Virus record (IMG/VR): IMGVR_UViG_2751185969_000015
Location: 1-37,691 of that record
Direction: 5' to 3' (one strand)
DNA from: a virus
Taxonomy: Duplodnaviria > Heunggongvirae > Uroviricota > Caudoviricetes
Length of the DNA: 37,691 nt
The notes beneath the pieces were generated by a model, which saw only the letters and a list, made by a program, of their open reading frames with translations, searched no databases and was not told the DNA's origin. Every line of letters starts with the position of its first letter. The stretch's first letter is position 1. Made by a program: the position numbers and the translations under genes. Positions 703 through 37,691 of the stretch are shown here, in pieces.

Positions 703-760
703 TTAATTTGCTCCAGATACAAGGAATCGCCGAAGCATGGCTACGGTGAATTTTGGGCAT

Positions 761-783
761 AAAAAAACCCAGCCGAAGCTGGG
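761..783 (-). terminator. Rho-independent terminator downstream of ant
   Basis: Perfect hairpin CCCAGC-cgaa-GCTGGG (768-783) followed on the minus strand by a 7-nt U-run (complement of A-run 761-767). Confidence 0.7.
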
Positions 784-802
784 TCGTTGCGTTGGTTATC
801 TG

Positions 803-1705: not shown

Positions 1706-1767
1706 GTTGGTTTTTCTCCACGGATTTACCGACAACCGAAGCCCTGACTGTTCCCGCAGTTGGGGCT

Positions 1768-1989
1768 TCACTGTTTTTGTAAGTCACTGTAGCTATAAAG
1801 CCACTGACCACTCATTTTTGATTTGATTGACTCTACTGAATCACGGCAAGGAATGATTCCGCCTGACATCATTCTGATCTCCGTAAATTCACCACTCCTT
1901 ATCGATTCAATGCCATCAATGTTAACTAAAGATTTACCTCTACCAAGTGCATTCTCATAGCCAATCTCATCAACCTCAATAAACCTCAT
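1768..1989 (-). CDS. Hypothetical 73-aa protein inserted between arc and ant
   Basis: [29 protein letters not shown]...; its ATG overlaps the arc stop (ATGA), suggesting translational coupling. No family recognised. P22 has no gene between arc and ant. Confidence 0.5.
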
Positions 1990-2144
1990 ACCGTTATCCC
2001 CTCTCTCTTCAGGCTGTCCAACACTCGCTTGTAAATCTCAGAGTTAACAGATCGCCCGTTCTCTTCCGCCACCTTACGCACCAAATCCAATACTTCTTTA
2101 GGCCACCGCAAATTGAACTGCGGCATTTTGCTCATTCCTTTCAT
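1986..2144 (-). CDS. arc: Arc repressor (ribbon-helix-helix)
   Basis: Translation from ATG 2142-2144: [52 protein letters not shown], near-identical to P22 Arc as I recall it. Confidence 0.9.
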   Translation of the reverse strand: MKGMSKMPQFNLRWPKEVLDLVRKVAEENGRSVNSEIYKRVLDSLKREGITV

Positions 2145-2159
2145 ATTTACCTCACAATA

Positions 2160-2207
2160 TAGATCCACCGTGGACCTATTGAGAATATAGTAGAGTGCTT
2201 CTATCAT
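2160..2207. promoter_or_regulatory. immI divergent control region with Mnt and Arc operators (Pant/Pmnt)
   Basis: Imperfect palindrome GATCCACcGTGGACC (about 2163-2179) resembles the P22 Mnt operator. ATAGTAGAGTGCTTCTATCAT (2187-2207) matches the P22 Arc operator. Both lie between divergent arc and mnt. Confidence 0.7.
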
Positions 2208-2234
2208 GTCAATACACTAACTTGGGGTGATGGC

Positions 2235-2483
2235 ATGGCTAGAAACGATCCGCACTTTAACTTCCGTATGCCTTTGGAAGTAAGAGAAAAATTGAAATTA
2301 AGAGCAGAGGCTAACGGAAGGTCAATGAACTCTGAGTTATTACAAATCGTTCAGGATGCTCTCTCCAAACCATCACCTGTAAGCGGGTATCGTGATGAAG
2401 AAGAGAGGCTGGCCTCATTAATCTCGGAACGAGTAAAAGAAGTTGCGGCTGATATCCTTAGAAAAGAAAAAACCCGCGATTAA
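2235..2483 (+). CDS. mnt: Mnt repressor
   Basis: MARNDPHFNFRMPLEVREKLKLRAEANGRSMNSELLQIVQDALSKPSP..., closely matching P22 Mnt. Confidence 0.9.
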   Translation: MARNDPHFNFRMPLEVREKLKLRAEANGRSMNSELLQIVQDALSKPSPVSGYRDEEERLASLISERVKEVAADILRKEKTRD

Positions 2484-2489
2484 GCGGGT
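2461..2489 (-). terminator. Terminator between convergent mnt and the minus-strand operon (bidirectional; stronger on minus strand)
   Basis: Hairpin ACCCGC-gattaa-GCGGGT (2472-2489) with a long U-run on the minus strand (complement of 2461-2471); only a weak T-run on the plus strand. Confidence 0.6.
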
Positions 2490-2497
2490 TTAGTTGG

Positions 2498-2719
2498 TTA
2501 GTTATCAAAAAGTCCGTACGTTTCTTCTTCTTCAGGTGTAAGGGGAAGAATCTCTACTCTATCTATAGATACCTTTTCAATGTACCCATGAGGTCTACTT
2601 AAAATTAAAGCTCTCTCATGCCACAGAACTCCAAGAATGTGATACCTCCCAGCATCGCCTTTTACCCTGGCTCTTCCTTTGATTCTTGGCGACATAATGC
2701 CATATTTTTTCTTTGCCAT
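2498..2719 (-). CDS. Hypothetical 73-aa basic protein, last gene of the RHH/Bro-N operon
   Basis: ORF MAKKKYGIMSPRIKGRARVKGDAGRYHILGVLWHERALILSRPHGYIEK...; its ATG overlaps the stop of the upstream gene. No family recognised. Confidence 0.5.
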   Translation of the reverse strand: MAKKKYGIMSPRIKGRARVKGDAGRYHILGVLWHERALILSRPHGYIEKVSIDRVEILPLTPEEEETYGLFDN

Positions 2720-3447
2720 TATGCAACATTACTCCCATGAATCAGGTGTTGTAGTGCTTTAACACCTTCCGCATTGTAGCGGAATACTTCCACCTGTTTG
2801 CTGGAATGCGCAGATTTATCCAGGAAGAACTTACCGTACTGCTCAGTTTTGAGGTTGTTTGCGTTAGCAATGCGACCAATCTTGTTGGCCGTTACTCCAA
2901 GCTGCTCTGCAACCTCCCCTGCTGAGTAGTAATGCTCTTCTATTGCTGGAAGAGGTATTGCATTAAAACCAACGATCGGGTTGATTATGCTTGCTGCCGC
3001 AGTCTGCTTTGCTTCCGGCGCAAGATTTGGCATCAAATCGAACAGATTGGTAACAGCTTCAACCGTCATTTTCAATGTTCGCGCCTGGCGATACTCAACA
3101 AGTCCACTCGACGATTTACCGCTTTTAATGTGCGCTTCTTGCATACTTTCAAGTTGGTCTACAAGTGAGCGGCGAACAGCTTTAGATTCACGAGCAGCCA
3201 CTCGAAGGGCTTGCTTAATTGACATAACAACTTTTTCAGAAGTTGTCTTGTTTGATTTTTGAACTACGAAAATTTCGTAGTGCTCACCTTCAAGTTCATC
3301 CTTAATGCGTGCAATAAAGTCGTTATTTCGGACTTCTTTTTCCCCGCACTGTCTACGAGCATGATTGACCATCTCTAACAGGTACTGGCTATCAATGGTT
3401 TTATCCGTGACAACGGATCCGATGTTTGCTACATTCTTAAAAGTCAT
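2719..3447 (-). CDS. Antirepressor-like protein (KilAC / P22-AR-C type C-terminal domain)
   Basis: Start taken at internal ATG 3445-3447 (MTFKNVANIG...) with an AAGGA RBS. C-terminal segment YYSAGEVAEQLGVTANKIGRIANANNLKTEQYGKFFLDKSAHSSKQVEVFRYNAEGV resembles phage antirepressor C-terminal domains. Assignment from motif recall only. Confidence 0.5.
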   Translation of the reverse strand: MTFKNVANIGSVVTDKTIDSQYLLEMVNHARRQCGEKEVRNNDFIARIKDELEGEHYEIFVVQKSNKTTSEKVVMSIKQALRVAARESKAVRRSLVDQLESMQEAHIKSGKSSSGLVEYRQARTLKMTVEAVTNLFDLMPNLAPEAKQTAAASIINPIVGFNAIPLPAIEEHYYSAGEVAEQLGVTANKIGRIANANNLKTEQYGKFFLDKSAHSSKQVEVFRYNAEGVKALQHLIHGSNVA

Positions 3448-3535
3448 TAGGCATTCCTTATGTGGTAGTAAGGGTGTGACATAGGCCGCCAGCAGCACAC
3501 TGGCGGTTTTCTTTTTGCGCAGTCCGGCGCACCAA

Positions 3536-4162
3536 TCAATGAATCCATTCCTCGCCGCGAAGTTTTGCCAGCATTGGCTGAGCGTTCTTTACGACAAAAT
3601 TGTTGGTATCAAGATTCTTCATTTCACGAAGAAGTGATTTCTTGGTTTCTTCTGACATGTAGCGAGTCTCATATGCAATATCGTAAATCCTTCCTGAAAG
3701 CTCAGAACCAATTTGCTTCATTCCTGGGTAGATGTGTTTGCACGTTTGTTGACTCTTCTCCATCCACAATTGTAAGTAGCAGAGATTAACCAGTTCTTCG
3801 TCAGTAAACTGTTTTGCAATCGGTGAGCATTCTGCCTGCCGATCCAAAATATCCAGCACCCAGCGGCGGAACTCTTTGGCTACCGGAGTGCGAGCAAACA
3901 TCGCGATTAGGTGGGCACCGCGTAGTGAGAAAACTCGCACTTTTTTGCGATAATTTCCTGAGGTACTCACTTCGAGTACCTGAGTCATTCCGGCGCTAAA
4001 CTCATCGCTATACTTGTTATAAATCATTGTTACTGCACGACTATTTGCGTATTTAAGTGCAGATGCAATATTAGATGATGTAAACCAAACACCATGCATA
4101 TCACGGGTGGGCACCAACTCAACTCCGTGGAAGTTGTAATCTGATTTTGCTACAATACTCAT
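3536..4162 (-). CDS. Bro-N domain protein (putative antirepressor)
   Basis: Start at ATG 4160-4162 (MSIVAKSDYNFHGVELV...) with an AAGGAAA RBS. Clear Bro-N signature: ...WFTSSNIASALKYAN...RVFSLRGAHLIAMFARTPVAKEFRRWVLDIL. Confidence 0.7.
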   Translation of the reverse strand: MSIVAKSDYNFHGVELVPTRDMHGVWFTSSNIASALKYANSRAVTMIYNKYSDEFSAGMTQVLEVSTSGNYRKKVRVFSLRGAHLIAMFARTPVAKEFRRWVLDILDRQAECSPIAKQFTDEELVNLCYLQLWMEKSQQTCKHIYPGMKQIGSELSGRIYDIAYETRYMSEETKKSLLREMKNLDTNNFVVKNAQPMLAKLRGEEWIH

Positions 4163-4235
4163 GTTAGTTTCCTTGCATACGGTTACTGACATAGAGGCCC
4201 GGTTTGTGTTCGCGCACTGCCGGGCTTCACTATTT

Positions 4236-4409
4236 TTATTGGATGACAACATCGCCCTTTGCCTCAAGTTTCATCAATAACTCCATTCGATAAGCTATCT
4301 CTGCCTGAATTGACCTATGGCATCTTTTTGCTGATTCGCGGATATGTGAATCAACCTTTTCTGTAAAACGAACCTGACGCGGCTTGATGGAAGATATCTT
4401 TTCAGTCAT
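4236..4409 (-). CDS. Small ribbon-helix-helix-like regulator (57 aa); not in the ORF track because it is under 60 aa
   Basis: Hand translation: MTEKISSIKPRQVRFTEKVDSHIREAAKRCHRSINAEIAYRMELLMKLEAKGDVVIQ. Strong AGGAG RBS. Beta-strand then helix pattern typical of Arc/MetJ/CopG-type RHH proteins. First gene of the operon divergent from the S24-like regulator. Confidence 0.5.
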   Translation of the reverse strand: MTEKISSIKPRQVRFTEKVDSHIRESAKRCHRSIQAEIAYRMELLMKLEAKGDVVIQ

Positions 4410-4508
4410 TATGCACTCCTGTTTTTAAAAAACTCATAATCTCACTTTTTGTAGTTTGATTATTCACTCACACTCAGTATGAGTCAATGAATTTTTTATG
4501 GTGAACTA
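4410..4508. promoter_or_regulatory. Divergent intergenic control region between the RHH operon and the S24-like regulator
   Basis: 99-bp AT-rich spacer between two divergent start codons; expected to hold divergent promoters and operators. No specific boxes assigned. Confidence 0.4.
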
Positions 4509-5150
4509 ATGAATTTTGACGATCAATTCCCATCAAGAGTATCTCTGGCAAGACAGTCCAGGGGTATGACGCAGGCGCAGTTGTCAAAATTAGCTGGTGT
4601 TGTTCAACGTCAAATAGCTGCATACGAGGGTGGTGAGGCTAAACCACGGCTTCGGGTATTGCAGGCATTAGCCAACGCATTAGGTACTACAGCTGAGTGG
4701 TTAGCTCTAGGTGAAGGTCAGGGTCCGGGAACAAAAAACGTCATGCCTGACGTTCTGGTAAAGCAAATACCAATCCTCAAACTAGATGAAGTTATGCATT
4801 ACCTAAACACAGGTGAACATTCATCGTCTAGATTTCATCCGGCAATATACAATGTTGGTGACTCTGCATTTGCATTGACTATTGAAGGTGAAGCTATGAC
4901 TACAAGTTCAGGTATTAGCTTTCCCAGAGGATCGGTTGTCACGTTCAGCCCTCTAGTAAAAGCTAAAAGCAAAGATTATGTAATAGCATCATTGGATAAA
5001 GAGCAAATATTGAGCTTCAAACAGGTTTACATTGGTGAAATAGAGACAAACCTAGTATCCCTAAACCCAATGTATCCTAATATTCTTGTTAGAAATGAAG
5101 ATGTTAGTATTTTGGCAACCGCAGTTTACCTTGAAATCCCGTTGCTTTGA
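4509..5150 (+). CDS. CI/LexA-like regulator: XRE-family HTH plus S24-peptidase-like domain with Ser to Ala at the nucleophile position
   Basis: N-terminal HTH (GMTQAQLSKLAGVVQRQIAAYEGGEAKP). C-terminal domain aligns with the lambda CI C-terminal domain: AFALTIEGEAMTTSSG vs lambda [16 protein letters not shown], and SFKQV vs TFKKL. The Ser of the G-x-S-M motif is Ala; the catalytic Lys is retained. Confidence 0.75.
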   Translation: MNFDDQFPSRVSLARQSRGMTQAQLSKLAGVVQRQIAAYEGGEAKPRLRVLQALANALGTTAEWLALGEGQGPGTKNVMPDVLVKQIPILKLDEVMHYLNTGEHSSSRFHPAIYNVGDSAFALTIEGEAMTTSSGISFPRGSVVTFSPLVKAKSKDYVIASLDKEQILSFKQVYIGEIETNLVSLNPMYPNILVRNEDVSILATAVYLEIPLL

Positions 5151-5210
5151 TATCCTTTAGGAAGCGACACATTATCATCTGGTATCCTGCTCAAAACTAA
5201 GGAGGTTGGT

Positions 5211-5660
5211 GTGAGTGAAAAATTATCAGTTGAGATTTACAGGGATGCCAAAAAATTGATTAAAAAGGCATTGCTGATTTCCCTATCTTTGTTAGCCATT
5301 GCCATTGTTTATTTTGTGGCAGACAAAATCTATACAGAACAAAAAAATAGCAAAAAAAGCGCTGAACTGATTATGCGAGCCGAAAATGCTGTCAAGGGTA
5401 CCCAACCTAAGGTGTTCAATAGAACAGACCTTGGCGAAAGTCACTCTATTTCCATTTGGTTTATTAATGATTCAGATAAGCACATTCTTGTAGAAAAAAA
5501 CGGTGAAAAATCGTTGTTTTCTACAGGAGGATATGTATCCGGTGATATCCATGCATATCATCAGGCCGGAAAGGCATGCGAAACCCTGTCTTTTTCTATG
5601 GATTCAAGTTCTGTGATATCCGCTTCTTGCGATTTTGATGATTATTACCTTAAAAAATAG
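5211..5660 (+). CDS. Single-pass membrane-anchored protein (moron at the P22 sieA-equivalent locus); GTG start
   Basis: GTG start with AAGGAGG RBS 5 nt upstream. N-terminal hydrophobic helix LLISLSLLAIAIVYFV followed by a roughly 110-aa soluble domain. AT-rich. Lies downstream of the S24-like regulator on the same strand. Confidence 0.55.
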   Translation: MSEKLSVEIYRDAKKLIKKALLISLSLLAIAIVYFVADKIYTEQKNSKKSAELIMRAENAVKGTQPKVFNRTDLGESHSISIWFINDSDKHILVEKNGEKSLFSTGGYVSGDIHAYHQAGKACETLSFSMDSSSVISASCDFDDYYLKK

Positions 5661-5677
5661 CCATCCATGGCGTCACC

Positions 5678-7813
5678 TCAATCCTGTGCCATTCCGCTTA
5701 GCGATGCCACAATCCCAGCCCTCGACAAACGCTGGAACTCTTCGTTTCCTAGTGCATCGCGAATTGCTTTTACGGCGGCCTTATTTGCCATAAATCTGCG
5801 TTCCGCCGCCGCTAATGCGCCATCACTTGCCCCAACTTTAACTGCCTTTGTCGCCTCTTGAACAGCCTTTTCAATAGCGTAACGACCACTTCTGGTTGCG
5901 GATAATTTCGCTATCGATCCTTTTGCTATTGCATCAATTGCTCCACCTGCAGCGCCACCCACTATTGCTCCAATAACACCTCCTCCAGAGAACCCTGCGA
6001 TAGCGCCAGCGGTTGGAAAAGCGCCAGACAATACGCTCTCTAAAACTGGATGAAGGCCATTCTCAAGAGTGCTAATGGCTGGCATAGAGCGCCCTGTTTG
6101 TTCAACATATCGAAGTGGCTTTGTTGCTGCTCTTGCAAGTTCTCCAAACCCCCTGGCAATCCTACCAAGCTCTGGAGAATATCGACTAATTGCCTTCACG
6201 TTTTGTGGGGTAAGAATAGTCGCGATATGCTTAATTCCAGCCTCTTCAGACTTACCTCCGCGTACCCCTTGCGATACCGCATCTTGTAATATTGATGCAA
6301 TTGCTGGCGCGCGTTCCGACTCAGGTAGGGCGCTTATTATTTTATGGAACTGACCTGTTCCACTTTTTGCTGAACCCTGCAACGCCTTAGAGCCATTAGT
6401 TACCAACTGATCAGTTGCAAGGTCTCTACCAAACGCTGCTTCAGCCTGTTCTTGTGCTGTAAATCTTGCCTTTGACAGATCATTAGCTTTTTGCCAGTCA
6501 TCAAGAAAACCACCATTTTGAGCCATTATGCGCATATCTTCCGTTGCTGCATCACGAAGCTCAGCCATGCGCCTTGCCGTATTTGCCTCACCAGACCTTA
6601 TATACTTCTGCTCTGCGTCAGCAAGTTTACTTCGCCATGCCTTCATGGCATCAAACGTGATTCCTTTTTTACCAGTTTTAGCATAAGCAGATGCGAATTG
6701 TTTCATCTCAGGAGTTAGCGGCATGCCAGCCAAAATATCACCCTGAATTGTAGCGTTCAGGTTTGACATTCTGGCCTTTGCGTCAGGCATCGTGGAGCGA
6801 ACGCTATCCCATGCGGCCTTTTCTGAATTTTTCATTTTATCAATACTTGCCAAAACCCTTTGTTTTATGGCTGCACTTTTTTCTGATGCAGTTCCTGCTT
6901 CAGCCCCAAACTCATCCAATGCTGAGTTAAATTTCGACTCTATTTCACTGAATGCTTTGGTGTGTGCATCCTGTGTAATTCCGGGCTTTGACGCCAGAAT
7001 CCCCTCCGCCTGAGCAAGACCACGACTACCTGATCTCATGCCAGGAGTTAATGCGTTGATATCTATTCCAGCAGTATCTGCTGCTTTTGCTATTTCGTCT
7101 GACACATTAGCTGACTGTCTGGCGATAATCTCTCTTCCTGTACCAGACTTTGCCATTTTCGAAACATCAGCAGCGGAATTTATTGCCCCGCCACCAAGAA
7201 CTTGAGGTGATTTAGAGGTTAAGATCCTTCCAGCCCCAGAAAGTATCCCCTGAGCACCAATATTGATACCACCGTTAATGGCAGCATTTTGTGCAAAGTC
7301 GCCCTCCTGATTTGCAGCATCAGCAAGAGAACCTGCAATCATGTTTCCTGCGGAACCGATATCTCCAGCGAGCTTTGCTGGCGCTCCAGCAGCTTTTGCC
7401 GCTGTGCCAATTGGCAGGAGATACCCCCCAATTGTTTCACCGGCTTGCGCGTAAGGGTCTGTCGGTCGATCGACTGGACGATAGACATCATCCAATACTT
7501 TTGGCCCACCAAGCCCCTGACTGATTGCATTAATCAGACTTGCGCCACCCTGCAATACGTCAAATGGTATGTTTACCAGACCACGACCAGCCTGTTCTGC
7601 AATTTGCCCTGCACTTTGACCACCAGTGAGCCAATCGCCAGCTTGTTGCATCAATGATGGTTCTTCACGCGCTGGTTCATTATTGGCCTGATTAACTGTT
7701 TGTTGCTGAACAGCCTGACCAGCAAAATACTCATCAATGGCGGTGCCAATATCTTCCGTGCTCGTACCATCAGGAAAGGTAAATGTCTTACCATTTGCAG
7801 TTACTTTCATCAT
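5678..7813 (-). CDS. Ejection (injection) protein, P22 gp16-like
   Basis: 711-aa Ala/Gly-rich protein in the P22 gp16 position (downstream of the gp7 and gp20 homologs); overlaps the upstream gene by 4 nt. Confidence 0.7.
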
Positions 7814-9189
7814 TCCACCGTAAATTGAATGCCTGATTTTGACGTGTAGCTACCTCCTGCTGATTGCTGAGTAGCTGGCTGTTGCCTTGATGATTTCTTC
7901 CCGCCATTACCAACATTAACGTTATATTGCTGGTTGTAATTGTCGGTATATTGCTGAATGTCGCGCATTGATTGTTGCAGCGCTTCAGGACTTGAGAAAT
8001 CAACCTGTGGCATACCTTGAAAATACATCTTTGCTTCTGCAACGGTGTTGATACCGGATGCCCCCATGTCTCTGGCTGCTGCAATGCCCTGATTCTGCAT
8101 CTTTCCTTGGATTCGCTGTGCAGCGTTGTATAGTTTCCTCTCCTCAACACCAGATGCCCTGCTACGAATATCTGCACCAAGAGCAAAAGAACCTGAAGAA
8201 CCTGTAATACCTGTCATGAAGCCAAGATCGTCAATTGATGCGCCAGAAATTGCATCAAGATCTTTCTTCATTGCGTAATTCTGCGCGCTTGCTGCCGATG
8301 TAGCTGGAGCGGCAATAGAACCAGCAGGAACGCGAACCATATTCCCCTCGTTGTCGATACCTTCGTAGAACGCATTAGCCCCAGCGCCGTGAAGCTTCCC
8401 GCCTACCGTTACAGTTCTGCCATCTGCTAACTGAACTGTACGCTCATTATTCCCAACCGCCCCTTTCATTGATGCTCTCTGCATCGATAAATCCTGACCG
8501 CGCATCGTGATATTCTGACCACGCGCTGTTAGCGCCTCGCCAGCCTGATTGCTGCGGATTGTCTCTGCCAACTTGCCACGCTCAATATCCCGACCTTCCA
8601 TTTGATCTTTGATATCGAAATACTTCTCATGACCGAGAGAAAATAGTGCCAGATTACCTGTGAAGTGCTGGAAGCCCTGCGGGTCATTAACCTGCATTTC
8701 CGCAATAGTTTCTGGAGGGATACCTAAACGACGCATCTCCTTTTCGTTATCCATCATGAACCTGCCAAATGCACCCGGACCAAGCGACGAAGCGACCTGA
8801 GCCTTAAGCGCCAGATTGCCAAAATCATCCCGCTGGGCGTCATCGACATACCCCATGCCTTTACGGACTTCCTCAAACTCTTCGGGGAATGCTGTAATAA
8901 GATTACGCATCTGCTCCCTGTCGCCGGACGCATAAGCATCCGCATAACCTTTCTGGAATGCCGCTTTACGTTCCTGCTGTTGCTGCTGCTTATAAATATC
9001 AGCAACTCCAGCCAGACCACGTAACGCGGTCAGACCAACGTTATTTGCACCTGAACGAGCCAGTTCATTGTTTTCGCGAATCAGACCAAGCGTTGCGTTA
9101 ATGTCGCTTGCCTTTGGCGCATTCTCATTTTGCGTACCGATGCCAGCCAGAAAACCACCAGAATTAATACCCTGTTGCCAAGTAGCCAT
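7810..9189 (-). CDS. Ejection protein, P22 gp20-like
   Basis: 459-aa protein in the conserved gp7-gp20-gp16 order of P22-like phages. Confidence 0.65.
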
Positions 9190-9199
9190 TGATTACCCC

Positions 9200-9892
9200 T
9201 TAAAACAACGAGCCAAGCAGACCAAGACCAGCACCGATACCAGCACCCCACGGAGTTGATAGCTCGAGAGCACTGGCTATGCCACCACCCAAAAGCGCAC
9301 CGGATGCAGCACCACTAACACCCTGCCGCAATGCTGACGGTCGGTTGGCGTTTGCCGCTGCAAGAGCCGCGCTTTGCTGTGAAATCTGGCTCATGTTGTT
9401 GGCATATGTTTGCCCGGCGTTTGCCTGCCCCTGAAGAGCGCCAAGACCGATATTTGCCAGGTTGTTGTAATTGTTCATTTGTCCAGACAGCCATTGCTGA
9501 CCAAGCGTTGGTGCGATTGTTGCTAACTGATTACTGGTTGCGGTGGAACCCAATCCACCTGTTGCTTCCGCTGCCGCCAGACTCTGATAGCGAGCCTGAC
9601 CTGCAAGGTCTTTATACTGCTGAGAGTTGTAATACTGGTTAAGTGCCTGACCTTGCCCTTCCAGAGACGATAAGTTCTCAAGGCTGCCGACATACTTCCC
9701 AGCCAGAGGAGTAAACGGCTTCAGGTTGTTCATGATGGTGTTGAACTGCTGATTTTGCAGGTCTGCGGCATACTTCTGAGCTTCTGCGGCATACTTTGCA
9801 CTTTTATCAGAACTGCCACCTTTCCCGCCTTTTTCAGGGCAATACGGTTCCTCGCCGCGCAGTTTTCTGCCCAGCTTAAATGCATATAACAT
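9200..9892 (-). CDS. Ejection protein, P22 gp7-like
   Basis: 230-aa Gln/Ala/Gly-rich protein with a hydrophobic C-terminus (GALLGGGIASALELSTPWGAGIGAGLGLLGSLF), following the gp14 homolog. Confidence 0.65.
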   Translation of the reverse strand: MLYAFKLGRKLRGEEPYCPEKGGKGGSSDKSAKYAAEAQKYAADLQNQQFNTIMNNLKPFTPLAGKYVGSLENLSSLEGQGQALNQYYNSQQYKDLAGQARYQSLAAAEATGGLGSTATSNQLATIAPTLGQQWLSGQMNNYNNLANIGLGALQGQANAGQTYANNMSQISQQSAALAAANANRPSALRQGVSGAASGALLGGGIASALELSTPWGAGIGAGLGLLGSLF

Positions 9893-22087: not shown

Positions 22088-22163
22088 TGGTGCTGGTTAA
22101 CGGACTTGAACCGCTAGCCATTCGCTTACAAGGCGACCGCTCTACCATTGGAGCTAAACCAGC
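22088..22163 (-). tRNA. tRNA-Thr (anticodon UGU), 76 nt with encoded CCA
   Basis: Hand-folded reverse complement GCTGGTTTAGCTCCAATGGTAGAGCGGTCGCCTTGTAAGCGAATGGCTAGCGGTTCAAGTCCGTTAACCAGCACCA. Perfect 7-bp acceptor stem, D-arm GCTC/GAGC, anticodon loop CUUGUAA, T-loop UUCAAGU, discriminator A. One mismatch in the anticodon stem. Confidence 0.6.
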
Positions 22164-22168
22164 ATGTT

Positions 22169-22243
22169 TGGCGGGACAGCGTGGACTCGAACCACGATAA
22201 GAAGGTTAACAGCCTTCCGTAATGACCTTTATACGACTGACCC
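22169..22243 (-). tRNA. tRNA-Asn (anticodon GUU), 75 nt with encoded CCA
   Basis: Hand-folded reverse complement GGGTCAGTCGTATAAAGGTCATTACGGAAGGCTGTTAACCTTCTTATCGTGGTTCGAGTCCACGCTGTCCCGCCA. Anticodon loop CUGUUAA and T-arm GGTTCGAGTCC as in E. coli tRNA-Asn. One mismatch each in the acceptor and D stems. Confidence 0.6.
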
Positions 22244-32899: not shown

Positions 32900-33505
32900 A
32901 TGAGCAAAGAATTTTACGCAAGACTGGCAGCTATTCAGGAGAATCTGAACGCGCCAAAAAATCAGTACAACTCATTCGGTAAATATAAATACAGAAGCTG
33001 CGAAGATATTCTTGAAGGCGTTAAGCCGTTACTGAATGGTCTGTTTTTATCAATCAGCGATGAAGTTGTGTTGATTGGTGATCGGTATTACGTGAAAGCC
33101 ACGGCAACTATTACCGATGGCGAAAACAGTCATACGGCAACCGCTCTTGCACGAGAGGAAGAAAGCAAGAAAGGAATGGATTCTGCACAAGTTACGGGAG
33201 CTACAAGCTCTTATGCACGCAAGTATTGCCTCAATGGTTTGTTCGGCATTGATGATGCAAAAGATGCAGATACCGACGAGCATAAACATCAGCAGAACGC
33301 AGCAGCAAAGCAATCAAAACCATCACCTACACCTGAACAGGTTCTAAAAGCATTCACTGACGCAGCATTGCAGAAAAACACCGTAGAAGAGCTTAAACAG
33401 GCGTTCGCCAAAGCGTGGAAGATGCTCGAAGGCACACCTGAGCAGCACAAAGCGCAGGACGTTTACAACATCAGACGAGACGAATTAGAAGGAGCGGCTG
33501 CTTAA
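32900..33505 (+). CDS. erf: Erf single-strand annealing recombinase
   Basis: Start at internal ATG 32900: MSKEFYARLAAIQENLNAPKNQYNSFGKYKYRSCEDILEGVKPLLNGLFLSISDEVVLIGDRYYVKATATITDGENSH... closely matches P22 Erf. Confidence 0.85.
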   Translation: MSKEFYARLAAIQENLNAPKNQYNSFGKYKYRSCEDILEGVKPLLNGLFLSISDEVVLIGDRYYVKATATITDGENSHTATALAREEESKKGMDSAQVTGATSSYARKYCLNGLFGIDDAKDADTDEHKHQQNAAAKQSKPSPTPEQVLKAFTDAALQKNTVEELKQAFAKAWKMLEGTPEQHKAQDVYNIRRDELEGAAA

Positions 33506-33888
33506 TGGCACATTCGATTACTGTAAGACTAAACAAGCCCGCAAGAGAGTTTCAGGCCGGGGAAAATATCGGATTCAACATCCGTGCTGGCGCTCAGTAT
33601 TACGATCGCCAGACAAAAAAGAAAGAATGGACAAACTACAGCGCCGTTGTATTTGCCAAGCCGGGAGCGCAAGCGGATTACTACCGTAGTGTTCTTGTTG
33701 AAGGTTGCATTGTGGAAATTACCGGAGAAAACATCAGGGTTGATGTTTATCAGGGGCAAAATGGTCAATCAATCACTCTTGAATTACTGAATGCAAAGAT
33801 TGGATTTGCAACTTCAGGAAACAGCCAACAGCAGCAAAGTAGCAATCATCAAAATAATCCTGAATACGACGATTCCATCCCATTCTGA
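33505..33888 (+). CDS. SSB-like single-stranded DNA-binding protein
   Basis: 127-aa ORF whose start overlaps the erf stop (TAATG). Gln-rich linker and C-terminal ...EYDDSIPF resembling the conserved SSB acidic tip (DDDIPF). Confidence 0.55.
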   Translation: MAHSITVRLNKPAREFQAGENIGFNIRAGAQYYDRQTKKKEWTNYSAVVFAKPGAQADYYRSVLVEGCIVEITGENIRVDVYQGQNGQSITLELLNAKIGFATSGNSQQQQSSNHQNNPEYDDSIPF

Positions 33889-33911
33889 TTTAGAAAAATA
33901 AGGATTTAATT

Positions 33912-34208
33912 ATGCCAGCGCCTCTGTATGGTGCGGATGACCCGCGCAACTGCTCCGGTAGCTCCAAGGCGGAGGTGCTGGAGAATATCAAAAACAATTT
34001 CGACGCGTTTCTTGCTCTGACACCAGAAACAAAAGCAGAACGGATGTACCGACGCGATATACAACTCGCGCTAAAACAGGAGAAGGACCGAACAAACGAA
34101 ACAGCAATGAGACCGTTGCGAAAAGCGACAATAGACAAACTCCCTGAATATATCGACCCGCGCCTGCGTAATTACCGCTCACGCTATGGCGCTACCAGTA
34201 ATGACTGA
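33912..34208 (+). CDS. Hypothetical early-left protein
   Basis: 98-aa [44 protein letters not shown]... with AAGGA RBS. Confidence 0.5.
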
Positions 34209-34218
34209 GGAATTTACC

Positions 34219-34383
34219 ATGAGAGGACTTGCATACAATCCCGGCATTCTTCCGGCAGAAATGATTATTCGCCAACGCGTAAAGCCAATGCCATCGAGAG
34301 AGGAATTACTTAAGAGAAATTCTTTTCCATCAGTGAATCAAAACAAATATCTGAATGCGATGTGGCGGAGTGGGAAGAAATGA
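34219..34383 (+). CDS. Hypothetical small protein
   Basis: Start taken at the ATG with GAGGA RBS: [54 protein letters not shown]. Confidence 0.4.
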
Positions 34384-34811
34384 AACAAATGTCACTAATT
34401 GAGATGGATGGATTTCTGAAAGGGAAATGCATCCCCCGAGATTTAAAGGTTAACGAAACAAATGCTGAATATCTTGTCCGTAAGTTCGGTGAACTTGAAT
34501 CAAAACTGGAAACGGCGTTGCGGGAGTGTCGTTCTGCTGGAATCACGATTGATAACCTTGAGGCTAAATGCGCGAAGATGGCTGCTGAAAATTCCTCGCT
34601 TAAGCAATCTGAGAAGGAATTTAATGACTTTTGTCGTGAGGAGTTTAGCGAATGGGAAGATGATATTACTGAAACCCAAGCCACCGATGCTTTTCTGGCT
34701 GAAGTACGGGCGCAGGGCGTGGAGATGTTTGCTGACCATCTGTTGTGCCCAGACCTTGATGACACTATCCGTGACTTTGCTGCCCAGCTTCGCAAAGGAG
34801 GCAACCAGTGA
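34380..34811 (+). CDS. Paralog A of a tandem early-left gene family (coiled-coil protein)
   Basis: ATG overlaps the upstream stop (ATGA). C-terminal ...[12 protein letters not shown] is shared with paralog B. The track start at 34362 is a GTG extension. Confidence 0.55.
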
Positions 34812-35440
34812 GCGAAATTAATTACCAGGCACTGCGTGAGGCGGCGGAACGTGCAATTCCAGCAATGGAACGCCTGTTAATGTTGCCAGCTGATGATGAT
34901 TTGTTAAGTGAACAGGAACTTAAAGATTACGGTGTGGATATTGATGCGCTCAACGCCTTCAAATTTCTGGCCGGACCAGAAACCGTGCTGGCACTACTGG
35001 ATGAACGGGAAAGAAACCAGCAATACATCAAATCTCGTGACCAGGAGAACGAGGATATTGCGCTAACGGTAGGGAAGCTGAGAGTTGAGCTTGAAGCCGC
35101 TAAAAAGTGTATTGCAGAGCTGGAAAGCAATTGCGGGGCGCTGGTGGCGGAATGCCAAAGCAAAAAAGCAGCACTTGAGGCAATTCTTAGCCATTGCCCA
35201 ATTAATCATCCAGATATAGACATCGCATGTATAGCGAACATCGCTCATAACGAATTAGGCGAGGCGAAAAGCAGTACATCTAAGGCATCCCTTGTAGAAA
35301 TACAGGCACAAGGGGTGGAGGCATTCGCTTTGACGATGCGCGATACAGGAGATGATCCATTTTTTGATTCCGTTGCTTCTGCTTGCGCGGATGCAGCTGA
35401 TAGGTTCGCTGCCCAGCTTCGCAAAGGAGGCAACCAATGA
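34808..35440 (+). CDS. Paralog B of the tandem family (GTG start)
   Basis: N-terminal 96 aa identical to paralog C ([36 protein letters not shown]...LRVELEA); C-terminus shared with paralog A. AAGGAGG RBS lies inside the conserved repeat. Confidence 0.6.
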   Translation: MSEINYQALREAAERAIPAMERLLMLPADDDLLSEQELKDYGVDIDALNAFKFLAGPETVLALLDERERNQQYIKSRDQENEDIALTVGKLRVELEAAKKCIAELESNCGALVAECQSKKAALEAILSHCPINHPDIDIACIANIAHNELGEAKSSTSKASLVEIQAQGVEAFALTMRDTGDDPFFDSVASACADAADRFAAQLRKGGNQ

Positions 35441-36003
35441 GCGAAATTAATTACCAGGCACTGCGTGAGGCGGCGGAACGTGCAATTCCAGCAATGGAAC
35501 GCCTGTTAATGTTGCCAGCTGATGATGATTTGTTAAGTGAACAGGAACTTAAAGATTACGGTGTGGATATTGATGCGCTCAACGCCTTCAAATTTCTGGC
35601 CGGACCAGAAACCGTGCTGGCACTACTGGATGAACGGGAAAGAAACCAGCAATACATCAAATCTCGTGACCAGGAGAACGAGGATATTGCGCTAACGGTA
35701 GGGAAGCTGAGAGTTGAGCTTGAAGCAGAAGAGAAAACATCAGCAGCTAGACTTGAGGCGCTCGACCGCACCCACAAAATGTTCCAACGGGAACAATGCA
35801 GGGCAGAGGCCGCAGAGAAGCGTATTGCTGAACTGGAAGCGCGGGAAGTTCAATTACCGACTCGCTACGACCTTCGATATGGACACCCGATAAATGCAGA
35901 TGAGCGACATGTCATGATACCTAAAGAAAATGGCAGTTGGCTTTACCTGATTGACCTAGAACACGCATTACGCGTCGCTGGCATTCGCATCAAAGGAGAG
36001 TGA
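35437..36003 (+). CDS. Paralog C of the tandem family
   Basis: Same N-terminal module as B, unique C-terminal module (...EEKTSAARLEALDRTHKMFQREQCRAEAAEKRIAELEAREVQ...). Confidence 0.6.
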   Translation: MSEINYQALREAAERAIPAMERLLMLPADDDLLSEQELKDYGVDIDALNAFKFLAGPETVLALLDERERNQQYIKSRDQENEDIALTVGKLRVELEAEEKTSAARLEALDRTHKMFQREQCRAEAAEKRIAELEAREVQLPTRYDLRYGHPINADERHVMIPKENGSWLYLIDLEHALRVAGIRIKGE

Positions 36004-36004
36004 T

Positions 36005-36154
36005 ATGGCTAAGTACATCGTGACTATCGAAGGATTTAATGATTGCAAGGTTGTTGAGTTTGAAGCAGACACGCCAGAGGATGCCGAAGAAATAGGCAGA
36101 GACATATTCTATGAAGAATGCAACTACGGCGTATCACCTGCTACAGAGGACTAA
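36005..36154 (+). CDS. Small hypothetical acidic protein (49 aa)
   Basis: Hand translation MAKYIVTIEGFNDCKVVEFEADTPEDAEEIGRDIFYEECNYGVSPATED with AGGAG RBS; not in the ORF track. Confidence 0.4.
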   Translation: MAKYIVTIEGFNDCKVVEFEADTPEDAEEIGRDIFYEECNYGVSPATED

Positions 36155-36235
36155 CACATAACCACTATTACCAAAGAACGTATTGAATTGTTCATTAAAA
36201 ATCCGCTTGAAAACGGGCTTACTCGTGGTGAACAA

Positions 36236-37165
36236 ATGGAACTGGCACGGATTGCACTGGCATCGCTGGAAGCAGAGCCTGTTCTGTATCAGTCCTGCAC
36301 TCGCCCCACTTGGAATAGCGGTGTTCCGTGGACGGAATGGAAAGAACGAAGTCGTGAGTGCTACGAAGACGATTTGCGCTTTACAGACACGCCTGACCAT
36401 GCCGGTTGGATATACAAATGTCGAAAATTATATACCACTCCGCCAGCGCCGATAGCGTTAGAGGCCATCGAAAACGCAATTGAATACATCCGCAGTATCG
36501 CTTTTCACATCGATGAAGACGATTACCACGGCAAACATATTGCGTATTTCATGCGACAAGCATTGGCCTGGCTGGAAGGGCATTCATGCAGCGACGACAG
36601 GCTGGGTAAGGCCGACAATCAACCCGCATCTGGTAACCAGGCTGCCGAATCCAATCGCGGTAATGAGTGGACCGGCAATCCTGATATTGATAACGCCATC
36701 ATCATGCTCGACCGCATAGATACGGCGGAAAGTTGCGATGATGACCGTATTGAGGCCGTTAAGGCTGTGTTGCGTAGACTGGCAGGCAACTATCCGGATA
36801 TTCCGGATGGTTTATCCACGGTATGCGCTGAGGCTTATCAGGTTGTAGGAGTTATGGCAGATGCGCTTGGTGTATTCGGTGATGCAGCAGTACAGAAAGT
36901 TCTGGATAACCTGTCACAGCAAAAACTTGTTCACAGAGATGTGCTGCCGTTCTCGCTTCCGGTGACTCCGGATGGTTGGATAAGCTGTAGTGAGCGAATG
37001 CCGAACGACGCGCAGTGGTGCGTAGTTGACGCCGAAGACGGGTATTACGTGCAATGCTGGTCTAAAGGTCAAGGATGGCTTGGAGATGACATCAGCCTAC
37101 GTAATTGCGATGTAATCAGATGGATGCCTCTACCAGAGCCGCCGCAGGAGGTTAACCGTGGCTAA
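36236..37165 (+). CDS. DUF551-domain protein
   Basis: C-terminal ...DGWISCSERMPNDAQWCVVDAEDGYYVQCWSKGQGWLGDDISLRNCDVIRWMPLPEPP is the DUF551 signature. Start taken at the first in-frame ATG (36236); the track start at 36188 is TTG. Confidence 0.6.
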   Translation: MELARIALASLEAEPVLYQSCTRPTWNSGVPWTEWKERSRECYEDDLRFTDTPDHAGWIYKCRKLYTTPPAPIALEAIENAIEYIRSIAFHIDEDDYHGKHIAYFMRQALAWLEGHSCSDDRLGKADNQPASGNQAAESNRGNEWTGNPDIDNAIIMLDRIDTAESCDDDRIEAVKAVLRRLAGNYPDIPDGLSTVCAEAYQVVGVMADALGVFGDAAVQKVLDNLSQQKLVHRDVLPFSLPVTPDGWISCSERMPNDAQWCVVDAEDGYYVQCWSKGQGWLGDDISLRNCDVIRWMPLPEPPQEVNRG

Positions 37166-37265
37166 CCTTCAACTTGCCGTCAAAGGTGAATAACAATCCT
37201 CGCACTCGCGGGGATTTCTTTTATCTGAACTCGCTACGGCGAGTTTTGTTTTATGGAGATGATAA

Positions 37266-37433
37266 ATGCACTTCCGAGTCACAGGTGAATGGAATGGAGA
37301 ACCATTCAACAGAGTTATCGAAGCAGAGAACATCAACGACTGCTATGACCACTGGATGCTGTGGGCGCAGATAGCACATGCAGACGTAACCGATATTCGA
37401 ATTGAAGAACTGAAAGAACACCAAGCCGCCTGA
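37266..37433 (+). CDS. Small hypothetical protein (55 aa)
   Basis: Hand translation MHFRVTGEWNGEPFNRVIEAENINDCYDHWMLWAQIAHADVTDIRIEELKEHQAA with GGAG RBS; followed by a terminator. Preferred over the overlapping track ORF 37174..37374. Confidence 0.45.
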   Translation: MHFRVTGEWNGEPFNRVIEAENINDCYDHWMLWAQIAHADVTDIRIEELKEHQAA

Positions 37434-37449
37434 TGGCGGTTTTTTATTG
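37423..37449 (+). terminator. Rho-independent terminator upstream of the excisionase gene
   Basis: Hairpin GCCGCC-tgat-GGCGGT followed by TTTTTTATT. Confidence 0.65.
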
Positions 37450-37490: not shown

Positions 37491-37691
37491 ATGCAACACG
37501 AACTACAGCCTGATTCACTGGTTGATTTGAAATTCATCATGGCCGATACTGGCTTCGGTAAAACCTTCATCTATGACCGGATTAAGTCCGGCGACCTGCC
37601 AAAAGCCAAAGTTATCCACGGGCGAGCAAGATGGTTATATCGTGACCATTGTGAATTCAAAAATAAGCTCTTAAGCCGCGCCAATGGGTAA
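37491..37691 (+). CDS. AlpA-family excisionase / transcriptional regulator (putative Xis)
   Basis: 66-aa ORF ...LKFIMADTGFGKTFIYDRIKSGDLPKAKVIHGRARWLYRDHCEFKNK..., the winged-helix pattern of AlpA/Xis proteins; last gene before the expected integrase beyond the window. Confidence 0.65.
   Translation: MQHELQPDSLVDLKFIMADTGFGKTFIYDRIKSGDLPKAKVIHGRARWLYRDHCEFKNKLLSRANG

Follow-up and report, generated by a model that had tools for sequence, protein, structure and literature searches.

A 319-bp direct repeat as the probable footprint of the recombination event that added a second Ea22-family gene to a P22-like Shigella boydii prophage

Introduction

How can a prophage come to carry two adjoining genes that are virtually identical in their 5' parts and dissimilar in the remainder? 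This question is raised by a locus in the early-left (pL) operon of a P22-like (CUS-3/HK620-type) Shigella boydii prophage, in which three translationally coupled accessory genes, here called A, B and C, follow one another. The window analyzed here is the whole 37,691-nt stretch of IMG/VR record IMGVR_UViG_2751185969_000015, and it is identical to MDDJ01000122.1 (GCA_001712575.1). A preliminary description of its sequence had proposed that either recent duplication or ongoing homologous recombination shuffles the modules of an accessory gene family at this site.

Lambdoid phages evolve in a modular (mosaic) manner by exchange at conserved boundary sequences, and both the Susskind-Botstein module theory and comparisons of HK97, HK022 and HK620 reportedly bear on this mosaic evolution. 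For the Ea22 family, mosaicism, variable C-termini and multi-copy arrays are already known. Ea22 of lambda and Stx phages is tetrameric, favors lysogeny and has variable C-terminal domains (PMC7093339, PMC10834534). HK446 gp27 (Oad2) is an EaE homolog that inhibits the P2 OLD defense nuclease, and fusions of EaE relatives to EaD/Ea22 proteins are noted in some cases (bioRxiv 10.64898/2026.07.10.737580). Gene flow between phage-plasmids of the P1/D6 group and integrated prophages has been described (PMC10879196). Here, we consider it likely, on the basis of sequence comparisons, that the 319-bp repeat in this locus was left behind by a single recent recombination event, through which the prophage gained a second Ea22-family gene without losing the resident one.

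Results

A near-perfect direct repeat spans the A/B and B/C junctions

Sequence comparison and a repeat search both confirmed the 319-nt direct repeat, the two copies of which (R1 and R2; Table 1) lie 629 nt apart from start to start. The lone mismatch is a G at 34808 versus an A at 35437, which distinguishes the GTG start of B from the ATG start of C; the stop/start overlap is GTGA in the first copy and ATGA in the second. As described previously, each copy takes in the end of the upstream gene with its AAGGAGG, the overlapping stop and start, and the next gene up to 2 nt past codon 96. At the left edge, 34776-34777 also match the second copy while 34778/35407 differs; at the right edge, identity ends at 35098/35727. 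A 319-nt match with one mismatch cannot have arisen by chance, and the 27-nt junction cassette within it had no matches in 100 shuffles. Toward their 3' ends, R1 and R2 have variants in common (TCT..T at 35033-35038 and A.A at 35081/35083), a combination absent from all of the more than 100 related loci examined.

The full cassette with GTG is present in 42 related loci, where it stands behind many different upstream genes. The full cassette with ATG was found elsewhere in one locus of 43, the IMG/VR contig L056. ATG starts are common in the family behind other upstream sequences and are rare (1/43) only in combination with the exact junction cassette.

Table 1. Coordinates of the features of the A-B-C locus in the window
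Feature	Position	Strand	Description
DUF2737 gene	34186..34383	+	PF10930, E 4.8e-31; TGA stop overlaps ATG of A (ATGA); directly upstream of A
Gene A	34380..34811	+	143 aa, ATG 34380; open frame reaches back to GTG 34362; assigned to EaE/Oad2 family
Repeat copy R1	34779..35097	+	Last 29 nt of A, Shine-Dalgarno/stop-start cassette, codons 1-96 (+2 nt) of B
Junction cassette 1	34785..34811	+	CAGCTTCGCAAAGGAGGCAACCAGTGA; Shine-Dalgarno AAGGAGG; GTG start of B overlaps TGA stop of A
Gene B	34808..35440	+	210 aa, GTG start; chimera of Ea22 N-module (residues 1-97) and X module
Tract perfectly identical to L056	35096..35661	+	566 bp, compared base by base: X, ATG-variant cassette, first 225 nt of second Ea22 gene
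Module X	35098..35407	+	B-specific second half of coiled coil and helical A/EaE-type C-terminal region
Repeat copy R2	35408..35726	+	Last 29 nt of B, cassette, codons 1-96 (+2 nt) of C
Junction cassette 2	35414..35440	+	CAGCTTCGCAAAGGAGGCAACCAATGA; ATG start of C overlaps TGA stop of B
Gene C	35437..36003	+	188 aa, ATG start; assigned to Ea22 family, N-module and Y
Module Y	35727..36003	+	C-specific coiled-coil extension and short C-terminal region ending ...AGIRIKGE
C end/next-gene start	35992..36007	+	AAAGGAGAG-TGA-t-ATG; K-G-E codons of C = Shine-Dalgarno of next gene
49-aa ORF	36005-36154		From the ORF list; phrog_1997 match

The ORFs adjoining the array are the DUF2737 gene, the 49-aa ORF and a DUF551 ORF. 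Neither a promoter-like site nor a plus-strand terminator-like site was found between 33400 and 37195. The prophage encodes its own Erf recombinase and an Abc2 anti-RecBCD protein.

B and C are assigned to the Ea22 family and A to the EaE/Oad2 family

Membership of B and C in the Ead/Ea22 family (PF13935) is indicated by profile scores above the gathering cut-off of 27: 106.3 bits for B (E 2.6e-30, residues 2-108 only) and 107.6 bits for C (E 9.9e-31). B matches phrog_368 end to end and C matches phrog_250. Residues 1-97 of the two proteins are identical, as expected from the N-terminal module that they had been said to share. The earlier label of a paralog array is, however, appropriate for B and C only. 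A has no Ead_Ea22 Pfam match in profile searches and, therefore, is not an Ead/Ea22 member. Rather, homology and gene order both place A in the EaE/Oad2 family: it matches phrog_614 (E 2.8e-58), is 57% identical to HK446 gp27 (E 5e-59) with near-identity over the first ~65 residues, and lies, like HK446 gp27, directly after abc2 and the DUF2737 gene. Moreover, its tblastn homologs are genes annotated as "EaE protein" in P22-like phages, and 143-aa homologs are annotated in E. coli relatives. NCBIfam searches gave nothing useful.

The idea that A and B share a C-terminal module holds only loosely. BLASTP aligns the two proteins over 147 aa at 29% identity (E 4e-9), and they agree fully in their last 10-11 residues. 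X is weakly homologous to the C-terminal half of A; nothing was detectable between A and C (E 3.2). Compared to Oad2 itself, B matches only in the last 11 residues, which correspond to the ribosome-binding cassette. B, a chimera, links an N-terminus of the Ea22 type to a C-terminus of the A type, and it is the sole member of its cluster at 90% identity among about 15 billion proteins. Other proteins that combine an Ea22 N-terminus with an X-type sequence (P0003-P0005) are 68-72% identical.

B ends in ...RKGGNQ and C in ...IRIKGE. In this region, the stretches encoding ...RKGGNQ and the published C-terminal K/R-G-E tripeptide are ribosome-binding sites for the next gene, and they also act as recombination linkers.

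Module X matches D6/P1-like plasmid prophages and module Y matches chromosomal Ea22 genes

Beyond the repeat, X and Y have no similarity to each other. X is 99.7% identical over 310 nt to E. coli plasmids of ~90-97 kb, and 52 of the 55 matching places in complete E. coli genomes are on plasmids. There, X is the 3' part of a 224-aa gene that is directly followed by an Ea22-like gene, and genes nearby include those for Ref nuclease, an Icd-like protein and Ash. Among the PLSDB matches to X, 42 of 43 are non-mobilizable. The plasmid prophage D6 matches X at 93.5%, and in L056 the identity is 100%. Judged by this near-identity, module X appears to be of D6/P1-like plasmid-prophage origin. The donor type also already has the 29-nt upstream-gene junction of the repeat. 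Because the perfect match to L056 runs on through the cassette, and because the ATG form of the cassette occurs elsewhere only in L056, the comparison suggests that C inherited its ATG start from an L056-type donor rather than by mutation after a duplication.

Y, by contrast with X, is 98-100% identical over its full length to sequences in five E. coli genomes, where it lies within genes annotated as ead/Ea22-like. The E. coli IAI39 ortholog of C, a gene consisting of N-module and Y, has 97% DNA identity over repeat and Y. C is probably the resident gene.

The tandem pair is present in a second assembly and is missing from relatives

A second S. boydii assembly, GCA_020341175.1, differs from the window by two mismatches and one gap over 7.2 kb and has the same tandem structure, including the G/A difference; because the two assemblies come from very closely related isolates, this agreement speaks for reproducibility at the assembly level and not for long-term stability. 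The comparison with related prophages called for earlier showed that those of E. coli GF4, E62 and 90-9281 have A and a single Ea22 gene, versus two here. In these three relatives, the N-module is ~95% identical and homology stops at the last bases of the repeat.

The full array was searched for in all 5,426 complete E. coli genomes and in GenBank phages, and no record reached ≥80% coverage (best, 71% at 95.9% identity). The 80 closest IMG/VR loci and 41 GTDB loci had no second N-module in the 3 kb to either side. The B-specific junction between N-module and X, AGCTGAGAGTTGAGCTTGAAGCCGCTAAAAAGTGTAT, had as a 37-mer no match in IMG/VR or the JGI metagenomes. The form that deletion would generate (A, one N-module, Y) was likewise not found, neither as a gapped exact pattern in IMG/VR and the JGI metagenomes nor in the complete E. 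coli genomes. Tandem arrangements of related genes do occur. The E. coli contig L134 has multi-copy Ea22 and EaE genes with 273-300-nt repeats of 93-96% identity, and L133 has an Ea22-N/X gene in tandem with an Ea22 gene, in which the N-termini agree at only about 75% of 57 nt.

Predicted architecture of B and C

Structure prediction of the modules agreed with a shared N-terminal part and distinct C-terminal parts. In AlphaFold2 monomer models, B and C have small helices at residues 6-55, one long helix (residues 57-128 in B and 57-138 in C; core pLDDT >90) and a C-terminal region of low confidence (pLDDT about 50-75 in B and below 50 in C). The part that B and C have in common is predicted to be a small helical domain at the N-terminus together with the first ~40 residues of the long central helix, and the C-terminal regions are predicted to differ. 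The fusion point lies inside the long helix, and the heptads of B stay in register across residue 97. This is also where the relatives diverge: the end of the repeat falls inside the predicted central coiled-coil helix. A fold search of the B model against the PDB gave no match (best E 1.6). In PDB sequence searches, C had no hit at E≤1 and B hit only a designed coiled coil (E 0.19).

[quoted passage not shown] The lambda-type C-terminal domain, a mixed alpha-beta dimer with an HRYYGVGG loop, was found in neither, and the motif HRYYG(I/V)GG is absent from both while present in other family members. This does not exclude membership because the C-terminal domains differ between members (PMC10834534). 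The C-terminal basic-Gly-Glu tripeptide is present in C (KGE) and not in B.

Discussion

Several lines of evidence argue that module shuffling by homologous and short-homology recombination, as proposed for the early-left accessory genes, has acted at this locus, and the 99.7% identity of the repeat copies argues that the event was recent. The proposal of a recent duplication did not hold up. X is unrelated to Y and matches a gene of D6/P1-like plasmid prophages at 99.7-100% identity; hence, B and C were not made by copying one gene. Had a single Ea22 gene been duplicated in place and had its copies then diverged in their C-terminal halves, two adjoining genes of the same family with a near-identical 5' part would be expected. 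However, the repeat has one change in 319 nt next to halves without any similarity, and no mutation process would remake one half of a gene completely and spare the other. The separate sources of X and of Y (the latter in chromosomal Ea22 genes of E. coli) and the reach of the repeat into the last 29 nt of the upstream gene, a junction that the donor type already has, also contradict simple duplication, which we reject as extremely improbable.

In the best reading of the data, unequal recombination or template switching combined a short-homology junction at the LRVELEA codons with a homologous crossover inside the repeat. The resident arrangement would have been A, cassette (GTG), N-module and Y, i.e., A plus C, a before state modeled on relatives of ~95-97% identity, as this arrangement with the prophage's own variants turned up in none of the collections searched. 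The donor would have been a D6/P1-like plasmid prophage in which a gene made of a zinc-ribbon-like N' and X is followed by the cassette (ATG) and an N-module. Copying or crossing over would have passed through the entire resident N-module and switched to the donor inside the LRVELEA codons at 35096-35097, where homology is short and imperfect. From there it would have run across X and the cassette into the beginning of the donor Ea22 gene. Ordinary homology in the first 225 nt of the N-module would have allowed the return to a resident template, now a second one. With the exit point downstream of the re-entry point, the N-module would have been duplicated. The 3' variants common to R1 and R2, absent from the more than 100 related loci, suggest that both copies derive from one resident template. 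Alternatively, an unsampled donor could already have carried the Ea22-N/X fusion, in which case the left junction would be older than this lineage; such an earlier fusion is conceivable because other Ea22-N plus X-type proteins exist, as shown by P0003-P0005 and by the end-to-end match of B to phrog_368.

The same pattern of identity would result if an older event had been followed by gene conversion between R1 and R2. An older B-C pair, inherited or imported as a whole, with N-modules kept identical by ongoing conversion (concerted evolution) would also fit the private variants of R1 and R2, the Erf and Abc2 proteins of the prophage, the repeats in L134 and the tandem pair in L133. We nevertheless regard such a history as unlikely, since no B-C tandem with this N-module was found in any of the 80 IMG/VR loci, the array is missing at ≥80% coverage from all 5,426 E. 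coli genomes, and the N-module/X junction is unmatched in IMG/VR and the JGI metagenomes. In addition, the perfect identity to L056 over 566 bp argues for a recent import, and the N-termini in L133 are far from identical.

That the structure is a product of assembly, with a chimeric or mis-resolved short-read path joining the prophage to a co-resident phage-plasmid or with the copy number miscounted, had to be considered because both source records are draft WGS contigs, the repeat is longer than typical short reads, and X-type sequence is normally on plasmids. We reject this as very improbable. The same structure is present in two independent assemblies of different isolates, and the N-module/X junction has the prophage's own variants (35081 and 35083) no more than 16 nt from X. 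This junction and the plasmid N'-X junction have at most ~8 exact bases in common, a match too short for a k-mer mis-join. Furthermore, X has an N-module before and after it and, thus, there are at least two copies, and perhaps more, unless X is on a 629-bp circle. Altogether, the second assembly and this junction logic largely remove the worry about an artefact. The 319-bp repeat is a risk for short-read assembly.

Finally, the conservation of the junction cassette and the N-module beside many different partners might bring to mind a programmed variation device in which the repeats serve as shufflon-like switching sites between C-terminal modules. We give next to no credence to this idea. There are no inverted repeats within the array; the sole inverted-repeat pair touching it (34316-34340/37511-37535) is 76% complementary and looks like chance. 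A shufflon, an invertible cassette and a DGR were rejected because the repeats are direct and the adjoining ORFs encode neither a recombinase nor a reverse transcriptase. Because the repeats are direct, recombination between the copies can only delete B, and irreversibly so, and the deleted variant was not found in the collections searched. The repeat is a likely site of deletion, and its description as a deletion hotspot is plausible.

The recombination event that we favor resembles lambdoid mosaicism in that homology with relatives ends at two fixed positions: at the Shine-Dalgarno/stop-start cassette, which is conserved after a dozen or more different upstream genes, and at the LRVELE(A) codons, beyond which at least eight different C-terminal parts are found. 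It differs from the usual lambdoid exchange in that the old and the new module were both kept, giving a tandem pair, and in that one of the boundaries is placed within a coiled-coil helix instead of at the border of genes or domains. The presence of plasmid-prophage sequence X inside a chromosomal P22-like prophage is in line with the gene flow between phage-plasmids and integrated prophages (PMC10879196). The transfer here would be a single sub-gene-sized one of about 0.57 kb, resolved to the base, and not an exchange of a whole gene or a whole module.

Like lambda Ea22, B and C are encoded in the early-left operon between recombination genes and xis; in their models, they share with Ea22 (PMC10834534, PMC7093339) the small N-terminal domain, the long central helix and the variable C-terminal region. 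C also ends in the K-G-E tripeptide of the family. By contrast, B has an EaE-type C-terminus with its own ending, neither C-terminal region resembles that of the solved lambda Ea22 by sequence, and lambda and the nearest relatives have one gene instead of two in tandem with identical N-modules. The combination of an Ea22 N-module and an A/EaE-type C-terminal region in B is reminiscent of the EaE-EaD/Ea22 fusions. The C-terminal half of A, on the other hand, diverges from that of HK446 gp27. An HK75 homolog that is 54% identical to Oad2, a value reproduced here, does not inhibit OLD (bioRxiv 10.64898/2026.07.10.737580) and, therefore, OLD inhibition is not transferable to A.

Extrapolating from the tetrameric, lysogeny-favoring Ea22 with its variable C-terminal domains and from the inhibition of OLD by Oad2, the likeliest function of A, B and C would be that of oligomeric scaffolds that present interchangeable C-terminal modules to host or defense targets. 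A bolder proposal, which we hold to be distinctly improbable, is that the cassette and the Ea22 N-module form a portable capture-and-display unit, that B and C form mixed tetramers, and that A and the EaE-type tail of B target OLD-type nucleases. The cassette and the first coiled-coil heptads would then supply the homology for stacking C-terminal effector modules in tandem, and the identical, oligomerization-competent N-modules would let B and C co-assemble. If true, one prophage would gain a combinatorial set of anti-defense or lysogeny-control specificities.

While the biology is ordinary, the locus is a very clean snapshot of mosaic formation, in which the two crossover points are located to within a few bases and the donor type can be identified as a plasmid prophage. 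The breakpoint inside the coiled coil indicates that an in-register fusion is tolerated, and the B/C pair offers a convenient natural system for asking whether Ea22 proteins with the same N-module form mixed oligomers.

Structure of the repeat and its operon

Aligning the window with itself base by base, shifted by 629 nt, confirmed the near-perfect direct repeat of the preliminary description: 34779-35097 (R1) and 35408-35726 (R2) are the same except at 34808 (G) versus 35437 (A), and a repeat search of the window recovered the same pair independently. At the right edge, identity ends at 35098/35727; at the left edge, two extra bases match before a mismatch at 34778/35407. Each copy comprises the final 29 nt of the upstream gene, whose codons there contain AAGGAGG, a stop/start overlap, and 96 codons plus 2 nt of the downstream gene. 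The overlap reads GTGA in R1 and ATGA in R2, and the single G/A difference thus lies in the start codon, as had been described. The three open reading frames concerned, A, B, and C, are co-directional, and the frame of A extends upstream to a GTG at 34362.

Accessory genes of the repeat region
Gene	Coordinates	Strand	Product	Start
A	34380-34811	+	143 aa	ATG overlapping the stop of the preceding DUF2737 gene
B	34808-35440	+	210 aa	
C	35437-36003	+	188 aa	

The sequence identifies the window as a P22-like prophage, closest to CUS-3, phiv205-1, and HK620-type and Kapi1-type phages. A strong Rfam match at 1706-1772 (+) to the sar RNA (RF00262, 87 bits), which in P22 immI regulates ant as an antisense RNA, agrees with this identity. 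The early-left order is N, (sieB), ral, cIII, kil, erf, a 127-aa ORF, abc2, DUF2737, A, B, C, a 49-aa ORF, a DUF551 ORF, a small ORF, and a TorI-type excisionase at the window end. The stretch from 33400 to 37195 lacks both sigma-70-like promoter matches and + strand terminator-like sites, the earliest + strand terminator-like hairpins being at 37195-37246 and 37423-37442; A, B, and C, hence, look like parts of a single long transcript, translationally coupled via the ATGA/GTGA overlaps.

The DUF551 ORF (36188-37165, 325 aa) has TTG as its first possible start and is absent from the gene calls of both source assemblies; it may be a 5′-truncated or otherwise damaged gene. Beyond the excisionase-like gene (37491-37691), host-type genes come next (LysR-type regulator, GntP-family permease, and PALP-domain enzyme), with no integrase in the sequence covered (L005, 7055-10567), and torI likewise lies beside host genes in the E. 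coli relatives L003 and L008. In KplE1-type prophages, the integrase is at the prophage end away from the excisionase, and here too it is probably at the opposite end.

Family assignments

The Pfam profile Ead_Ea22 (PF13935) matches B and C with 106-108 bits, in B over residues 2-108 only, whereas A had no PF13935 match in a Pfam profile search and matches phrog_614. For B, the match is phrog_368, over the entire length, and for C it is phrog_250; both are families of unknown function. In view of these assignments, the term paralog array is only partly apt: B and C do share an N-terminal module (residues 1-97; N-module), but pairwise comparison detected no similarity between A and C. The C-terminal module said to be common to A and B amounts to weak similarity (29% over 147 aa, E 4e-9) and identical last 10-11 residues.

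Homologs of A in P22-like phages are annotated EaE, and A is 57% identical (E 5e-59) to HK446 gp27, which occupies the same slot after abc2 and DUF2737. This protein, named Oad2, inhibits the P2 OLD defence nuclease, is related to P22 EaE, and is occasionally fused to EaD/Ea22 proteins, and an HK75 homolog 54% identical to Oad2 is reported inactive (bioRxiv 10.64898/2026.07.10.737580, July 2026 preprint); our comparison reproduced the 54% identity. The prophage also carries tRNA-Thr(UGU) and tRNA-Asn(GUU) side by side at 22088-22243 (- strand). Phage tRNA-Thr(UGU) counteracts the OLD tRNase, and HK446 has this tRNA plus Oad2 (bioRxiv 10.64898/2026.07.10.737580); like HK446, the prophage combines tRNA-Thr(UGU) with an Oad2 homolog.

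Mosaic breakpoints and the origin of B

In E. coli GF4, E62, and 90-9281, A is followed by one Ea22-like gene; DNA identity to the window is ~95% from abc2 to the repeat end, and divergence starts within a few bases of 35097. In IAI39, a 188-aa gene with 97% DNA identity to C consists of the N-module and Y, the C-specific part (35727-36003). In database protein alignments, at least eight C-terminal parts unrelated to one another, the lambda-type domain and DUF551 among them, follow the N-module (residues 1-95) after LRVEL(E), and X, the B-specific part (35098-35407), has at least four different N-terminal partners. At the gene junction, a cassette of Shine-Dalgarno sequence and stop/start overlap, AGCTTCGCAAAGGAGGCAACCA-GTG, precedes the Ea22 start in 42 fetched loci with many different upstream genes. 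Given this conserved cassette and the LRVEL(E) switch point, the repeat ends coincide with the two habitual mosaic breakpoints of the family. In E62 (NZ_CP022393.1; 3180-3833 of the fetched locus), the annotation marks the single Ea22-like gene as a pseudogene interrupted by an internal stop; translation places a stop at codon 56, within the N-module, and this lysogen can evidently do without the gene.

X is matched in 55 complete E. coli genomes with identities reaching 99.7%, 52 of these places being on ~90-97 kb plasmids; 42 of 43 X-bearing plasmids are typed non-mobilizable in PLSDB, and the plasmid prophage D6 has X at 93.5%. Plasmid NZ_CP085065.1 has X as the 3′ portion of a 224-aa gene whose N-terminus is different and rich in cysteine; this gene lies near ref, icd-like, and ash genes and has an Ea22-like gene directly downstream. 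The same gene pair occurs on the IMG/VR contig L056, where the second gene has the window-type N-module. L056 is 100% identical to window 35096-35661 over 566 bp, spanning X, the ATG cassette, and the opening 225 nt of the second N-module, and differs upstream of 35096 at 35077, 35081, 35083, 35092, and 35095. An ATG start with this cassette was found only in L056, versus GTG in 42 loci. Because ATG starts are common behind other upstream sequences, the ATG by itself is no proof of donor inheritance; together with the 566-bp identity, it suggests that the G/A difference was inherited from an L056-like donor and did not arise after duplication. R1 and R2 both have TCT..T (35033-35038) and A.A (35081/35083), at equivalent positions in copy 2, a combination found in no other locus examined.

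Proposed recombination history

The simplest history that we infer for these observed relationships is a four-element recombination model. The starting state would have been a resident A, cassette (GTG), N-module, and Y. A switch to an L056-like donor would have occurred at 35096-35097 through short imperfect homology (16 of 21 bases) in the LRVELEA codons; copying would then have run through X and the cassette (ATG) into the start of the donor N-module before a homologous return, between 35437 and 35661, to a second resident template. This return would be upstream of the point of exit, which would leave the N-module duplicated. Either unequal exchange among replicating genomes or template switching could have produced this outcome.

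An older tandem kept uniform by gene conversion is less likely, given that no other such tandem is present in the 80 closest IMG/VR loci, 0 of 5,426 E. coli genomes cover ≥80% of the array, the B-specific junction is without match in IMG/VR or JGI metagenomes, and the 90%-identity cluster of B has one member. An assembly artefact is very unlikely as the source of the repeat. The exact B and C sequences occur only in NCBI records named Shigella boydii. MDDJ01000122.1 (GCA_001712575.1) is 100% identical to the window at matching coordinates, and a second assembly, ABDAEY010000017.1 (GCA_020341175.1), has 2 mismatches and 1 gap across 7.2 kb and the identical tandem structure, G/A difference included. 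At the R1/X junction, the prophage's own variants lie ≤16 nt from X, and only ~8 exact bases are shared with the corresponding plasmid junction, too few for an assembler k-mer overlap to have made it. Moreover, because X is flanked by the repeat on both sides, at least two repeat copies must exist.

Protein architecture and embedded ribosome-binding sites

For both B and C, alignment-based AF2 models predict small helices as far as residue 55 and then a single long helix (57-128 in B, 57-138 in C) whose core has pLDDT >90; prediction of the C-terminal regions is poor. Residue 97, the fusion point in B, thus falls inside the predicted helix. By a simple heptad count, the register of B is unbroken across this residue, and the pattern in C is less regular. 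The B model had no fold match in the PDB, and neither B nor C has a sequence match to the solved lambda Ea22 C-terminal domain. Ea22 of lambda and of Stx phages favours lysogeny, and full-length Ea22 is a tetramer with C-terminal domains that vary among phages (PMC7093339, PMC10834534). By analogy, B and C probably serve as oligomeric scaffolds that carry different C-terminal modules, and, given their identical N-modules, mixed B/C oligomers are conceivable.

The Ea22 C-terminal K/R-G-E tripeptide has been described as a motif of unknown significance (PMC7093339). In C, KGE is encoded by AAAGGAGAG, directly before TGA and with the ATG of the next gene 4 nt on (the whole stretch lying at 35992-36007), a position that makes the KGE codons the Shine-Dalgarno sequence of that gene. 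Likewise, where A, B, and many EaE-type proteins end in ...RKGGNQ, the coding sequence is AAGGAGG, the Shine-Dalgarno sequence for the Ea22 start (34793-34811 and 35422-35440). Both "motifs," therefore, look like by-products of embedded ribosome-binding sites, which double as recombination linkers.

Other arrays

Approximately 35 GTDB species-representative assemblies of unrelated bacteria (genera including Shewanella, Pseudomonas, Streptomyces, Kingella, Prevotella, and Bacillus) have short or ~48.4-48.5 kb contigs with lambda-type ea22. These are lambda DNA contamination as judged from the one contig checked, that of Shewanella canadensis (48,542 bp), in which 6.2 kb match phage lambda J02459 with 100% identity.

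The presence of several copies of Ea22 and EaE genes is not unusual as such. X-bearing plasmids carry the pair of 224-aa gene and Ea22-like gene, and in locus L133, an Ea22-N/X-type gene (P0003, 72% identical to B) has another Ea22 gene directly downstream. A 6.7-kb stretch of E. coli GCA_027876345.1 (ABKBCD010000002.1: 97367-104089) contains four genes with the Ead_Ea22 domain, direct repeats of 273-300 nt that are 93-96% identical, and the junction cassette in four copies. This locus also has five copies of one 13-residue coding motif, and its mosaic array is far denser than that in the window. What is distinctive in the window is the 99.7% repeat identity at 629-nt spacing together with a fully traceable history. 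Altogether, the feature is real and well explained, and it provides a new and well-resolved example of a process already known, in a gene family that is likewise known and whose function is obscure.
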